Virus record (IMG/VR): IMGVR_UViG_2897352509_000007
From: a virus
Taxonomy: Duplodnaviria; Heunggongvirae; Uroviricota; Caudoviricetes
Reading direction: 5' to 3' (one strand)
Length of the DNA: 64,000 nt
Position numbers: made by a program. Shown one piece after another: positions 21,001 to 27,000 of the stretch; within the stretch, counting starts at the first letter, position 1; every line of letters starts with the position of its first letter.

Positions 21001-24000
21001 TTCAAGGTCGATCATTAGATGGTCACACGTCCTGCTGGTGGATGTGATAATGCGATGACCGTTCACCGTAATTAAGGGATCTGCCGTCTCGCCAGTTTCA
21101 CTATCGCTGGCGTGGTCCTGAGCGCTGCCAGCATTCTCCTTGTGTGGATGTTCAGCGCCTTCCATTTTCTCCGAATCGTCTTCCTGAACTTCAACCAGGT
21201 TCTTGTCATCGAATGTTTCCTGGTATGTTGCGTCGCCCATCACCGCGCCACAATCAGGGCAGTTGCCGCCACTCCTCTGACCGCAGGCGGTGCAGATCTT
21301 TTCCGGTTCCTGTTGCACTACTGGTTCAGGTTGTTTCGTTTCTGGCTCGTTTTGTTGCGTATTTGGGCTGTTCTGTTCCGCTTTCTGGTCGTTCTGTTCC
21401 GTTTCTGGCTGATTCTGGTACACAGAATCGCGGGTCTGGATCCCCTTAATCCATTTCGGATCATTCGGGTCGCTAATCCCTTCAACAAATTCTCCGCGAG
21501 AGGCAGCCAGTAATTTGTCTGCATCGACAGGATTTTGGGGCGGAATGTTTTTCCGGGCTTCATGGAGTTCTGCCCGCAGTTTCTGATATTTCGCATCAAC
21601 AGAATTTATCTGTGGCTGAGCATCCATCGACTGCGTGTCCTGATTATGTTCAGTTGTATCCGGTTCCACTGCTTCAGTCGTTGCCTGTTCATCTGCCATT
21701 GCGCCAGATGGCTGCGGTTTTTCTTCATCATCCTGTTTTCCTTCTTTTGTTACACGCTGCGGCATTGGAGCAGAGGAGCGACCGCAGGCAATATCCACGA
21801 TTTCTGGATCAGGGTTGGCATGGTCGGTTTCGGTCAGTACTTTGTTCAGATATTCGGTAACACGGTGGGGAGTAGCCTCGATACCAATTGGTGCTTCTTT
21901 CACGGACGCAACCACTATCGCGCGGGAATAATCCAGGTGACCAGGCATGGCGATGAATTTGTCACGAAAAACAGAAAAGGGCGGCTTATTCTCTGAAACG
22001 ATTTCTTCAATGCGTTTGGCGTGTGCCGGATGTGGATTGTAAATATCGATGTCCATTGAACGGGCCAGAACGCCAGCGGCAACGTCACGTTCTACTGACG
22101 CATCATCGTGGACAAAACTTTCACCGCGATCGGTAAGAATTCCTCCGCCAGCATTAGCGCCGGATGGCGTGCGGCTGATGCGTAAAACACGATTTCCTTT
22201 CATCCACTCTTTTGTCAGCAGACCTCGATCGGTATAGTCAGCGTCCAGGTATGCTTCGAAAAAAGCAGTCATTAACCCCAGACTGGAATTAACGGGATTA
22301 GGGAAAACTTTGTCTGTGTCGCGTACCAGTTTGTGAAGGTCGCGAATCTCCAGCGGGTCGAGCAGCTTTGTGTTGTGGGAAATAGCCAGGGCAGTAACAG
22401 CAGGCAGTTCTTCAGCTCGTGCGATATGTAATGCCTGAAGTTCTTCCCGTGAAACGTGCGTTACCGGTTTTTCGCTGCCATGTTGCGCAAGCCAGCGAAT
22501 GGGCAGTTCCTGACCGGAAATCGGCAGGAGCATATTATCCTCAATCTCAGCCATGTCTTCGCCATTGACGTTGGTATTGTCAGAGCTGGCTGGTTTGTCC
22601 TGAACTGAGGGGGAAGGCGCTATAAATATCATTGTGATGCCATCTTCCCCGCCTTTTTCATAGCGGTTGCAGAATTCAGTATCGAACACACCTTCAGGCG
22701 GCAGGTCATTAACAATGGGCAAATTCACGCGAACAGGTTTTTTGAAATCCTCTTCGTCAAATCCAGCATCGTCCATTGCGACAACACCCCGTGATATTGC
22801 AACCGATAATTTTTTTGCTGTGCGCCAGTAAAAACCGCCTTTAATCCCAAGGCGTTTTCTGACTTTGTCATTTTTGGCTTCGTAATACAGTGCAATTTCT
22901 TCTTTATCAGTGCTCATTGATAAACCTCATAACTATTTTAAGGTTGTACGAATCCCTGCCATTGCTGGCATGCTTAATCAACGGGTATGGCGTTAATACG
23001 GCTGGCGGGTTATCCAGCCGGTATTTCGTTATTCAGGTACAGCGATACTTTGTTTAACGGGAGACATTCACCGGAAATTTTTTGCTCGTCTCTTGCCTGA
23101 TGGCAGGATTCTTTACTGGCATAAATTCCGGTAATCACATTCTGTGGCTCACCTGTTATAAGAAAAACCGTCATCATCAGTGCAAACGCTGAACTCACTG
23201 CTGCCCTCCGAAAATGCCAAGTTCAAGAAGGGCAATTCTGGAGAGTATGGAATTATCATTGAGAAGATAAGGCTCATATTTTCTCATCCTGATGGCGTCT
23301 TCAGTAAACTCCCGGTTACTGAGCAGAATACCAATATTAAAACACCCTTCAGACGTATTAACGTTTGGTAGTGACGTTTCCATTATCGCGTCCTCAACAA
23401 TGAATTTTGTGATGTGGTGCCTGGTGCCTCCAGGTGACGTTAACCAGTTAACAATTAACGCCGGAATACAGAATCACCCATAACGCTGTTTTTAGCTTTA
23501 ACTGTTCCGCGTGCGCTCAGCCGCATTCACCACATCACAAAATTCACTTTAAAAAGGGCGGCAGAGCAGTCACGGAGTAAAACTGATACCGCCAAACGTC
23601 ACCAGAAAATTGATAACAGAAGGCGTTGCAGCGGGGTTGTCACTTAAGCGTATGGTCAACCTGACAACCCGGTGTCCTCAACGGGGAAGAAATAACCCCG
23701 CCATACTTACCGCCGCACCATTTCGCGGGTTGCCACAACCGGAAGCGCACGGTCGACGAAAATTTAACGACAGGCTATCTATGAACCAGCTACCTCGCCG
23801 TGCGCTTTCGCGTTATGGTCTGACTTTTCAGGGAAATATCCTTTCAGTAAACTGTCAGTGCCGGATGCTCACCCGCGTCCGGCGCACGCACTCCACCTCA
23901 CCCGTGGAGAACTACTTAATTACCAACCTTAGCTTCGTTGGTTAGCTATTAACGCGGGTATGTAATCATTCTGGCAATGCTTAATGCCGCTGCTTTTTCC

Positions 24001-27000
24001 AGATTGGTGATATCCTGCTCCAGAGCGGACAGTTTTTCAGCCTGCTTAGCCCTGGCTTCATTGGCCCATTTCAGATCCTGCGCTGCATTAATTTTCTGGC
24101 GCATCCACTCATAAAGTTCATCATCGGTATAGTCTGGTGCGATGATGACGGGTTCTCGTTTCTGCATACTGATTCCTCGCGGTGCTGTTTCGCTTATCAG
24201 CCGTTAGATTTTGCCGAGCTGGAAAGCGCCTGTTTAAATTCGTTGAAGCTGAGAGCTTCTTCGCCGTCGGCAAGACCTTCGAAGTATTCTTCATAAGCCT
24301 TTTCCATGATTGTGTCGAAATCCATATCACTCACCTGAGTTTCTTTCCAGCCAGCGACGGGCACCATTTTCGGTTTTAAACGTTTTGCTTTTGGTATACG
24401 TCATCGCGGTGAACGTGCCGTCCTGGTTGGGGAACACGCCACATACCAGAGATTCGCTGTTGCCAAGATCGATAGTATCCATGCTGACCTCATTTCCCCT
24501 TAACGCCGGGTAGCGGAACTGTTTGCTGAGAACACCGTGCGGTGTCTTGATGGGTGGTAATTTAGTTTTCTCATGAATGTTGGTCAAGTATTTTTAATGA
24601 GAAAACTCAATATTTAATGCAAAATAAAGCCAATACATTGAAATGTAAGGCTTTAAAATTTGTGAAGGGGGTTACTGATGTTTGTTACGTTTGCGAGCTT
24701 CTAGTAGCTCGGTGAATAGGCGATTAAAATTCTCAACGCGGGCACGGAGTTCGCTGATTTGTGCTTGCTGCTCTGATTTTGGAAGTGCGCGATACAATCG
24801 CAACATCTCCAACTCATCTTCCGATAAGTCTAAGGCGCTGTTGAGTGCAACTGGTGGATCTGGTGTTTTATCCTCGTCACCAAACAGTATCCAAGTTGGT
24901 GAACATTGCAATACCTCAGCCAGGCGATGCAAATTTTGCCCGCGCGGGGCTGTATGGTCGCTTTCCCATAGTGAAATTGATGAGCCAGATACGCCAGCGG
25001 CTTTGCTTAAATCGTTTTGACTTAAACCAACCTGTTTGCGTCTTTCTCTAATTCGTTGACCTAAAGTTTTCTCGTTCATATTTAGATATCTTAATCACCC
25101 TTGACTTGAGATTCCTTGAGTGATTACTATTGAGAAAACTCAACTTTGGAGGGGTGATGTTTAAATCAGACGTAATTAATTTTTATGGGACGAAAGCCAA
25201 AGTAGCGAAAGCTGCTGGTGTTGATCCATCTGCTGTTTCTCAATGGGGGGAACTGGTTCCTGAAGGTCGCGCGATGCGCCTGCAAGAGGCATCCGGCGGG
25301 GAACTTCAGTACGACCCCAAAGTTTATGACGAATATCGTAAGGCAAAGCGGGCGGGGCGGTTGAACAATGAAAATCACCCCTGAACAGGTTTGTGAGGCT
25401 CTGGATGCCTGGGTATGTCGACCAGGAATGACACAGGAGCAGGCGACGATATTAATCACGGAAGCATTCTGGGCTCTGAAAGAACGCCCGAACATCGATG
25501 TTCAACGCGTCACGTTTAATGATGGCGAGGTTGATCAACGGGCGCTGGGCGTTAACCGGGTGAAGATATTCGAACGCTGGAAAGCTATCGACACCAGGGA
25601 TAAGCGGGAAAAATTCACGGCGCTGATTCCGGCAATTATGGAGGCTATCCGAATTAGTGATTTCAGGTTGTATCGTGAGATCAGTGATGGAAAAAGCATT
25701 ACGTACATGATCGCCGGATTAAACAAAGAATATGGCGATGTGGTGGAGTCCGGGCTGCTTTTTGCGGATCCAGCTGTTGTGGAACGTGAGACTGACGAGC
25801 TTATAGAAAAAGCTATTGCTTTCAAGCATGCGTATCGTCAGCAGTATCAATATTACTTTGCAGATAAACAAATATCTGCCAGGGGTTCGTATGAGTATCG
25901 ATGCACTACGATGGGCTAAAAAGGTGAAAACCGGCAGTTCATCCAGTAAGTCTGTATTGACCTGGCTTGCTGATATGTGCGGTGCCGATTTGTGTGCATA
26001 CCCGTCTGTATCTGCACTGGCAGAAGTAACGGAACTGAACAAAAAGACTGTGCAGGACAGCTTACGACACCTGATGGAGATTGGGTTAATTGTTGATACC
26101 GGTGAGAGAAAAGGCAGAACAAAGCAAATTGTGGTGTACCGACTTATCGGTGTAGAAGAAAGTGTTGCCGAGCCTGAATACACCCAAAAACGGGTGTCTT
26201 TAAAGGTGGGTAAAATTGGTGCTGTTAATAAAAACAGTACCGAAAACGGTTATGTTTCAGCACAAAAGAGCCCCAAAAACGGAACTCTTTGTTGCATGGA
26301 AAATAACCAAAGACACCCAAATTTTCCATCAAAGACACCCAAAAACGGATCACGGAACCCAAAGGAACCCAAAGATCTAAACCCCACACATAACGCACGC
26401 GAGAGTGCTCCGACCAGTGAGCAGGAAGTTTTGTCGTTACAGGCAGCCCCCCATGTATTCCTGGATGGCCTGAGCGAACCCATCGGAAAATTTCCGATGA
26501 CCGATAGCTGGTATCCGTCACGGGATTTTCGACGACGGGCTGCGTTGTGGGGGATGGCTTTGCCGGAGACAGAATTTACACCTGCTGAACTTACCGCATT
26601 CCGGGACTACTGGGCAGCGGAGGGGAAAGTGTTTACGCAGATTCAGTGGGAGCAGAAATTCGCCCGTCACGTAAATCACGTCAGGGCGCAGGTTAAACCA
26701 GTCAGCAAGGGGGTAAACCATGCAGCAGCACCAGGTGGCACCGCATCACGGGCAGTTCAGGAAATTCGGGCAGCACGTGAGCAGTGGGAACGTGAAAACG
26801 GATTTATCAGCGACGGAAACGGCCTGGAAGCTGTGGGAACTCATGGGGGAGGTTTATTCGAACCGCTGGACCCAGAAGAACGGGGCCGCACCTTCGAAGC
26901 TCTGGATTGCACAGATTGGCGCGATGACTGAGCAGCAAATCCGGCAGGTCTGCCGCCAGTGCATGGACCGCTGCCGGGCGGGTGAAACATGGCCTCCGGA

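Follow-up and report, generated by a model that had tools for sequence, protein, structure and literature searches.

The closest described relative of the locus reported here is the dic module of the Qin (Kim) prophage of Escherichia coli K-12, dicA-dicC/ydfABC-dicF-dicB-ydfD. We compare with it a dic module at positions 23010-25384 of a 64,000-nucleotide stretch of DNA from a Caudoviricetes record (IMGVR_UViG_2897352509_000007); the whole stretch is called the window below. In Qin, repression by DicA is established and is relieved by the antirepressor Rem; DicA and the Gifsy repressors are not cleavable by RecA and are controlled by antirepressors (PMC10448788). The spacer between ydfC and dicF holds RNase III and RNase E sites that release a 190-nt and a 53-nt species of the small RNA (sRNA) DicF (PMC10448788). 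DicB binds MinC at its C-terminal domain, reaches the septal ring via ZipA and blocks the ManYZ-dependent entry of phage DNA (PMC6832061), while the lysis protein YdfD binds IspG and has its effect suppressed by DicB (PMC8835842).

The second system that invites comparison is the PL operon of phage lambda. Both loci have a divergent repressor/Cro switch and a leftward early operon with recombination genes, xis and int at its end, and both operons encode a small protein that inhibits formation of the FtsZ ring and depends on ZipA, which in lambda is Kil (PMC3961180). On the other hand, DicB has no sequence relation to Kil and acts through MinC, and its operon also encodes an sRNA, DicF. Unlike the lambda repressor, the repressor here has no RecA-cleavable domain, and control by an antirepressor is expected, as in the Gifsy prophages (PMC10448788).

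The dic module and its relation to Qin

The first 24 kb of the window are 100% identical, over their full length, to E. coli O157:H7 str. EC4115 (NC_011353.1, 1718264-1742263). We read the region as the immunity switch and the early-left (PL-like) operon of a lambdoid prophage that sits at the ompW 3' end of this strain, and we give this reading a probability of about 85%. Note that gene identities and order, the DicF sequence, the positions of promoters and operators, the mosaic boundaries, the frequency of DicB alleles and purifying selection have been computed directly. All biochemical activities, including those of the DicB allele that we call type B, are carried over from work on K-12 and from sequence identity. 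The features of the module and of the far end of its operon are as follows.

18882-19007: duplicated 3' fragment of ompW, 126 bp, marking the attachment site (RefSeq annotation of EC4115)
19053-20433, minus strand: int and xis, the distal genes of the leftward transcription unit from dicBp, beside the ompW fragment (RefSeq, EC4115)
23010-23198, minus strand: ydfD-like gene, DUF1482, 62 amino acids (RefSeq WP_000092782.1)
23195-23383, minus strand: dicB, 62 amino acids, type-B C-terminal allele (...RKYEPYLLNDNSILSRIALLELGIFGGQQ) (RefSeq WP_000450222.1, 'cell division inhibition protein DicB')
23384-23555, minus strand: spacer between dicF and dicB with the dicB ribosome-binding region, 82-100% identical to K-12 in 40-column windows
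23556-23608, minus strand: DicF sRNA, 53 nt (Rfam RF00039)
23609-23948, minus strand: spacer between ydfC and dicF, 90-100% identical to K-12
23949-24167, minus strand: ydfC, 72 amino acids (RefSeq ydfC)
24197-24325, minus strand: ydfB, 42 amino acids (RefSeq WP_000344930.1)
24327-24482, minus strand: ydfA, 51 amino acids, DUF1391 (Pfam DUF1391, 96.2 bits)
24672-25079, minus strand: dicA-type repressor gene, 135 amino acids (NCBIfam DicA)
25157-25384, plus strand: dicC, Cro-like, 75 amino acids (NCBIfam DicC, Pfam P22_Cro)
25368-25919, plus strand: ydaT-like gene, full length, 183 amino acids (Pfam YdaT_toxin, 25.7 bits)

On the minus strand the genes follow each other as ydfD-like gene, dicB, DicF, ydfC, ydfB, ydfA and dicA, with dicC divergent on the plus strand, and both order and orientation are those of Qin. 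The original prediction, made from the sequence without database searches, had proposed just this arrangement, and every element that it listed was found where it had been placed. The similarities that it claimed also hold once DicF, DicB, DicA and DicC are aligned to their K-12 counterparts. Its short ydfB-like reading frame is a real gene, annotated in RefSeq and identical to K-12 YdfB at 40 of 42 residues; YdfA (49/51) and YdfC (71/72) are equally close, so that the three proteins share 96-99% of their residues with K-12. All curated family models for the proteins of the module were passed. Since the operon runs into exo, xis and int, it corresponds to the lambda PL operon, and DicB and DicF take the place that Kil has there.

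The remaining proteins are more distant from Qin: DicA is identical to its K-12 counterpart at 74/135 residues (55%), DicC at 53/75 (70%), DicB at 36/62 and YdfD at 28/62 (45%). The immunity cassette is thus a replacement relative to Qin, and YdfD and the C-terminal half of DicB (residues 36-62, 11/27 or 41% identical) represent another allele. The YdfD-like protein nevertheless matches Pfam DUF1482 with 53.8 bits (cut-off 25) and keeps both cysteines of K-12 YdfD, C32 and C45; the GTG start of its gene overlaps the stop codon of dicB (GTGA), and dicB and ydfD overlap in Qin too. Furthermore, the ydaT-like gene has its full length here. K-12 YdfX (96 amino acids) is identical at 86/96 residues to the N-terminal half of the ydaT-like protein, from which we conclude that Qin has kept only remnants of such a full-length gene, as ydfX and ydfW.

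The module as such is known and already annotated, and its arrangement is neither unusual nor new. Its genes carry their names (dicB, ydfC, ydfB etc.) in RefSeq in both EC4115 and the Shiga toxin-producing E. coli (STEC) strain 2014C-3061. Parts of it occur in 4648 of 5426 complete E. coli genomes, at a median of 2 places per genome. Multiple dicBF operons have been noted before in pathogenic E. coli, including enterohaemorrhagic E. coli (EHEC) (PMC6832061), for which four dicF copies are reported (PMC7873438).

A mosaic of three blocks

We aligned the module region to K-12 and calculated the identity per 40-column window. From 25600 to 25270, a stretch that starts in the ydaT-like gene and runs on through the 3' two-thirds of dicC, the identity is about 80-97%. 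Between 25265 and 24545, a segment with the 5' end of dicC, the operators, dicA and dicBp, it amounts to 35-65%, and between 24545 and 23345, where we find the ydfA leader, ydfABC, both long spacers, DicF and the first dicB codons, it reaches 90-100%. From approximately codon 15 of dicB onwards it falls steadily to 35-65% through ydfD. Judged by this profile, the dic region is a mosaic of three blocks: an exchangeable immunity cassette, a near-invariant ydfABC-dicF core and an exchangeable dicB-3'/ydfD segment.

The proteins of the cassette are themselves unevenly divergent. DicA is identical to K-12 at 25/58 residues in its helix-turn-helix (HTH) part and at 49/79 in the rest, and DicC at 12/33 in the N-terminal DNA-binding part and at 41/43 in the rest. 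The divergence within both proteins lies where specificity is expected.

The immunity switch

The control elements found by promoter scan, motif search and comparison with K-12 are listed below, together with the antirepressor gene.

24587-24559, minus strand: dicBp, PL-like sigma-70-type promoter (-35 TTGACC, 17 nt, -10 TAAATT; promoter scan)
24598-24609: DicA operator candidate TGAGTTTTCTCA, an inverted repeat just upstream of the dicBp -35
24562-24573: copy of this operator with one mismatch, filling the dicBp spacer and overlapping the -10
25101-25130, plus strand: dicC promoter, sigma-70-type (TTGACT, 18 nt, TACTAT; promoter scan)
25131-25142, plus strand: candidate operator TGAGAAAACTCA, directly after the dicC -10
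25065-25076: weaker related operator-like site, overlapping the start of dicA
30880-31140, plus strand: rem homologue, 73% identical to K-12 Rem (61/84, E = 2e-40)

DicA matches NCBIfam NF007257 with 238.3 bits (cut-off 101). Among Pfam families it matches HTH families alone, with no S24 peptidase domain, which makes it similar to K-12 DicA and to the repressors of Gifsy; like Qin, this locus has a short repressor that lacks a peptidase domain. DicC, encoded divergently from dicA, matches NCBIfam NF007282 (167.6 bits, cut-off 130) and Pfam P22_Cro (64 bits, cut-off 30.2).

Both dicBp and the dicC promoter occupy positions equivalent to those in K-12. The palindromes at these places are different: in K-12, TTAG-N6-CTAA is present three times at equivalent places, whereas here we see TGAG-N4-CTCA, and each motif is absent from the other locus. 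In a motif search the exact palindromic 12-mer occurred twice in the window, at 24598 and 25131 only. From position and symmetry we infer that the TGAG-N4-CTCA palindromes are putative DicA/DicC operators. The different operators, taken together with the divergent cassette, point to a different immunity, which suggests that the prophage is heteroimmune to Qin and would have the same switch architecture with another specificity.

The rem homologue follows hokD, as in Qin. We also considered SOS control of this gene, as is the case for the Gifsy antirepressors, but this is unsupported, as there is no CTGT-N8-ACAG match near 30880. In the window as a whole this motif has six matches (8337, 18139, 26222, 41253, 47465 and 54370) against 0.66 expected, a count that was reached in 0 of 100 shuffles.

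Two alleles of DicB

DicB matches Pfam PF05358 with 115.7 bits (cut-off 27), residues 1-62 aligning to positions 1-62 of the profile. The original prediction had described a conserved N-terminal and a different C-terminal half, and had suggested that the latter could alter the targeting of MinC. The contrast is real but less sharp than this implies: identity to K-12 amounts to 25/35 in residues 1-35, 8/19 in residues 36-54 and 3/8 in residues 55-62. The N-terminus reads METSLPNVNTSEGCF here and MKTLLPNVNTSEGCF in K-12, so that L5 is kept and K2 is replaced by E. In K-12 DicB the replacements K2A, K2G and K2R are tolerated, L5 and the N-terminus are essential, and the binding of MinC depends most on the N-terminus (PMC4967827). 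The protein can do without its last 8 residues, while C-terminal deletions of 12-20 residues weaken the activity (PMC4967827). Five of the 16 positions at which the C-terminal half differs from K-12 fall in these last 8 residues.

A homologue search returned many DicB clusters with two main types of C-terminus, type A, which is K-12-like (...ERELLNKICIVSMLARLRLM...), and type B, as found here (...EPYLLNDNSILSRIALLELGIFG...); a third, related form is seen in Citrobacter and others. Types A and B can be aligned without gaps, R34, K35, E37, S48 and A51 being invariant and L40, L41 and I46 nearly so. In natural recombinants each of the N-terminal subtypes is joined to each of the C-terminal types (P0030 and P0032 as one combination, P0065 and P0067 as the other). 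Of the 5426 complete E. coli genomes, 1230, with O157:H7 and ST131 strains among them, carry the dicB-3'/ydfD segment of type B, 141 of them with at least 99% identity; 3964 genomes carry the type-A segment. Both can share one genome: the tandem ompW prophages of 2014C-3061 carry one type each. The type-B allele is thus common and not a private oddity.

For a set of five type-B alleles, comparisons with the window gave a ratio of non-synonymous to synonymous polymorphism (pN/pS) of 0.11-0.25 for the C-terminal half of dicB, based on small counts; in residues 36-54, three of four such comparisons show 0 non-synonymous and 2-4 synonymous differences, again small counts. On these ratios we regard the C-terminal half of type-B DicB as being under purifying selection. 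In an AlphaFold2 monomer model built on the family alignment (predicted local distance difference test score 75.8), which we used for secondary structure only, there are helices at residues 11-22, 24-36, 38-43 and 46-54, and the tail 55-62 is unstructured. Overall, type B appears to be the same protein in the form of a functional, maintained allele. We judge that it is probably a functionally equivalent variant of K-12 DicB.

Potentially, the type-B C-terminal half could instead give DicB a different partner or targeting, for example septal targeting independent of ZipA, another set of inhibited inner-membrane receptors, or a weaker or absent dependence on MinC, which would make the alleles functionally distinct division and exclusion factors. 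The low identity in residues 36-54 and 55-62 and the contribution of the C-terminal region to the activity of K-12 DicB would fit such a difference, and so would the fact that type B is linked to a ydfD of equal divergence. Each allele has been retained at high frequency, the two reside together in single genomes, and the Sp9 prophage of strain Sakai, whose effector end lies upstream in the window, carries a type-A DicB. On the other hand, the conserved part of the protein is precisely the N-terminal region reported as most important for the interaction with MinC, recombinants of all kinds exist, the helix pattern and key residues are conserved, and co-residence is expected anyway from prophage mosaicism. 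Furthermore, MinC and ZipA are core E. coli proteins, so that one sees no obvious variation in the host that the alleles could follow. On balance the indirect evidence on the C-terminal half leans away from a change of function, and we consider this explanation unlikely. The same low probability applies to a more specific form of it, in which two anciently diverged, recombining C-terminal alleles (A in about 73% of the complete E. coli genomes, B in about 23%, the two often in one cell) differ in their targets beyond MinC, such as ZipA dependence or the inner-membrane phage receptors that are shut. If the alleles did differ in their targets, prophages would carry different specificities of division block and superinfection exclusion.

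The published biochemistry of DicB is all that of K-12 and hence of type A, while about one quarter of complete E. coli genomes, O157:H7 and ST131 among them, carry type B. The behaviour of type B therefore bears on whether conclusions about DicB extend to pathogenic strains. We found no functional study of type-B DicB in the literature. The nearest is a study of O157:H7 whose 'dicB' reverse primer encodes ...GIFGERQ*, identical at the primer site to the type-B allele L008; with these primers a type-B dicB was deleted and quantified, and no direct filamentation assay of the protein was reported. The filamentation screen in strain UTI89 (PMC6206680), which we had considered as evidence on type B, was dropped because the DicB of UTI89 is type A.

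DicF and the state of the prophage

The DicF sequence is identical to K-12 dicF at 53/53 positions, base-pairing regions included, as the original prediction had claimed, and matches Rfam RF00039 with 76.7 bits (gathering threshold 48, E = 3.6e-15) over model positions 1-52 of 52. It ends in a GGCGG...CCGCC terminator hairpin followed by a run of U (UUUUU). Its gene is part of the dicBp operon, with ydfC on one side and dicB on the other, and the 340 nt upstream are 90-100% identical to K-12. RefSeq has a plus-strand coding sequence for a 54-amino-acid 'hypothetical protein' at 23781-23945, antisense in this spacer. This call is probably spurious, because the near-identical K-12 spacer is RNA-processing sequence.

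The window holds two tandem prophages, and the dic module belongs to the second one, which extends from int at 19053 to the end of the window. It is integrated at the ompW 3' end, in tandem behind an Sp9-like prophage that carries effector genes. The original prediction called it otherwise complete, and this is largely, though not entirely, the case. RefSeq annotates as intact in EC4115 int, xis, an O-like replication gene, P, a Q-type antiterminator, holin, lysozyme, spanin, terminase, portal, a ClpP/major-capsid fusion and the full tail set including J and the tail fibres, so that genes for integration, replication, late regulation, lysis, packaging, head and tail are all listed as intact; Qin lacks such a setting for its module. 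However, the gene for an ExoVIII-type exonuclease with a 3'-5' exoribonuclease domain (20473-22917, minus strand) is frameshifted near its 3' end, its open frame ending at 20602, and an IS1 element (insertion sequence; 61988-62685) adjoins a truncated tail-fibre-assembly gene (61729-61795). In strain 2014C-3061 the exonuclease gene is intact (814 amino acids). In summary, the prophage is nearly but not fully intact.

In this strain the module might be kept mainly as a host-serving regulatory cassette, an extra copy of DicF that tunes ftsZ, metabolism, pchA and thereby the locus of enterocyte effacement (LEE), and stx2 at low oxygen, and less as a functioning component of the phage's lytic cycle. 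The two lesions would fit this view. The most conserved block of the region is DicF with its processing region, 97-100% identical to K-12, parts of the module are as widespread as described above, and the four dicF copies of EHEC activate pchA, and hence the LEE, under microaerobiosis (PMC7873438). Against this stands the phage gene set retained around the module, from int and xis through the O-like gene with its probable iterons to the tail genes. In addition, comparable Sakai lambdoid prophages, Sp6, Sp9 and Sp10, whose repressors have no peptidase domain, are inducible spontaneously and not by mitomycin; DNA of Sp9 and Sp10 is packaged, and markers of Sp6 and Sp10 were transferred to K-12 (PMC2669165). 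We take a mainly host-serving role as possible but clearly the less probable account, and the two roles are compatible with each other.

It could also be argued that the module is an inert, decaying remnant and that the C-terminal divergence of DicB is drift in an unselected gene, as Qin itself is a decayed prophage and the exonuclease gene next to the module is frameshifted in EC4115. This we regard as very improbable: all seven small reading frames are intact and of full length, pN/pS is well under 1 for both dicB and ydfD among type-B alleles, the promoters and operators are intact, and the allele is present in 1230 genomes, in 141 of them with at least 99% identity.

How the module would work

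In the reading that we prefer, an immunity switch with its early-left operon, the short, non-cleavable DicA would in the lysogen occupy the TGAG-N4-CTCA operators that flank its own gene and shut both the dicC promoter and dicBp. Derepression would proceed by way of a Rem-type antirepressor, or through a spontaneous flip of the DicA/DicC switch, and not by RecA cleavage. A single leftward transcript, ydfA-ydfB-ydfC-dicF-dicB-ydfD, would then be made, which probably continues into exo-xis-int. From it RNase III and RNase E would release DicF, which with Hfq would block the translation of ftsZ and act on other targets too; in EHEC it would also activate pchA and hence the LEE. DicB, acting with MinC, would inhibit ManYZ and so exclude lambda-like phages, and the YdfD-like protein may be a lysis factor whose effect is restrained for as long as division is blocked.

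Several observations weigh against this reading, or against parts of it. The match of DicB to NCBIfam NF049927 is marginal (102.2 bits, cut-off 100). The two DicB alleles differ at 8/12 positions in residues 43-54, and these residues matter, since K-12 deletions of 12-20 C-terminal residues weaken the activity. Functional dissection of DicB is limited to the K-12 allele (PMC4967827). In the phage collection, type B was found in no isolated phage, all 12 type-B matches being prophage-derived records. For the switch, position and symmetry are what ties DicA to the proposed operators, and the motif search with CTGT-N8-ACAG gave no LexA box upstream of the rem homologue that would point to a natural inducing signal. 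Finally, with the exonuclease frameshift and the IS1, the prophage may not be able to finish a lytic cycle alone.

Relatives in prophages and isolated phages

A 2.6-kb query around the dic module is 100% identical to strain 2014C-3061. In a longer comparison the DNA identity is 99.8% over positions 18889-45500 of the window; the match begins only at 18889. The ompW prophage of that strain (NZ_CP027548.1, 2030000-2058000) occupies the same site and has an identical DicB protein accession, the same ydfD allele and the same ydfABC-dicF block. It differs in that its capsid gene is frameshifted, whereas in EC4115 it is the exonuclease gene, and the EC4115 prophage stands in tandem behind an Sp9-like one; the tandem neighbour in 2014C-3061 carries the type-A dicB. 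Different strains thus hold different lesions in the same prophage.

The PPompW prophages of STEC O145:H28 (GenBank LC567818-LC567841) share the site, a type-B dicB (90% protein identity), the ydfD allele and the ydfABC-dicF block, and their immunity region matches the window in four pieces with 94.7% identity. Among isolated or plaque-forming lambdoid coliphages, mEp460 (mEp460_ev081), HannyBb, Tritos and PhiR42_1 carry a ydfABC-dicF-dicB block. The immunity regions of HannyBb and mEp460 are about 91% identical to that of the window at the DNA level (positions 380-2601 of the query matched). The DicB of these isolated phages is type A and 58-66% identical to the DicB of the window. The prophage in the window, in which ydaT has its full length, the left arm is intact and ends in int, and a Rem homologue is present, shows what Qin was like before its decay.

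We also considered whether the dic-bearing prophage is Sp9 of Sakai itself. This was rejected: Sp9 is located at ompW too, but differs in its left operon and carries DicB of type A, and the prophage in the window is therefore a second, tandem ompW prophage.

Other features of the window

Positions 1-18900 are the right end of the separate Sp9-like prophage and form a type III effector island, which also holds several insertion sequence remnants. Its annotated features are:

4869-6194, minus strand: nleA
8021-8932: nleH1-2
8998-9567: nleF
10533-12845: ISEc8
14174-14821, minus strand: nleG
15005-15595: espM1
17415-17753: a further gene of the NleG family

In the dic-bearing prophage, the O-like replication gene contains 4-5 direct repeats of about 19 nt (CAAAGACACCCAAAAACGG) at 26176-26373, which are probably origin iterons, and among them a palindrome resembling a LexA box, CTGTTAATAAAAACAG, at 26222-26237. 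A type I toxin-antitoxin pair is formed by the sok antisense RNA (30338-30512, Rfam 111.7 bits) and hokD (30507-30662), which is placed as in Qin. A tRNA (35423-35493, annotated as tRNA-Met) lies downstream of the genes for the Q antiterminator and a DNA methylase. This is followed by the sRNA STnc100 (35569-35761, 144.5 bits) and, on the strand opposite to it, by the anti-GcvB sRNA AgvB (35763-35824, 96.5 bits), which matches its consensus perfectly. At the right end of the prophage, after the IS1, lies a gene for an effector kinase of the OspG/NleH family (62861-63451).

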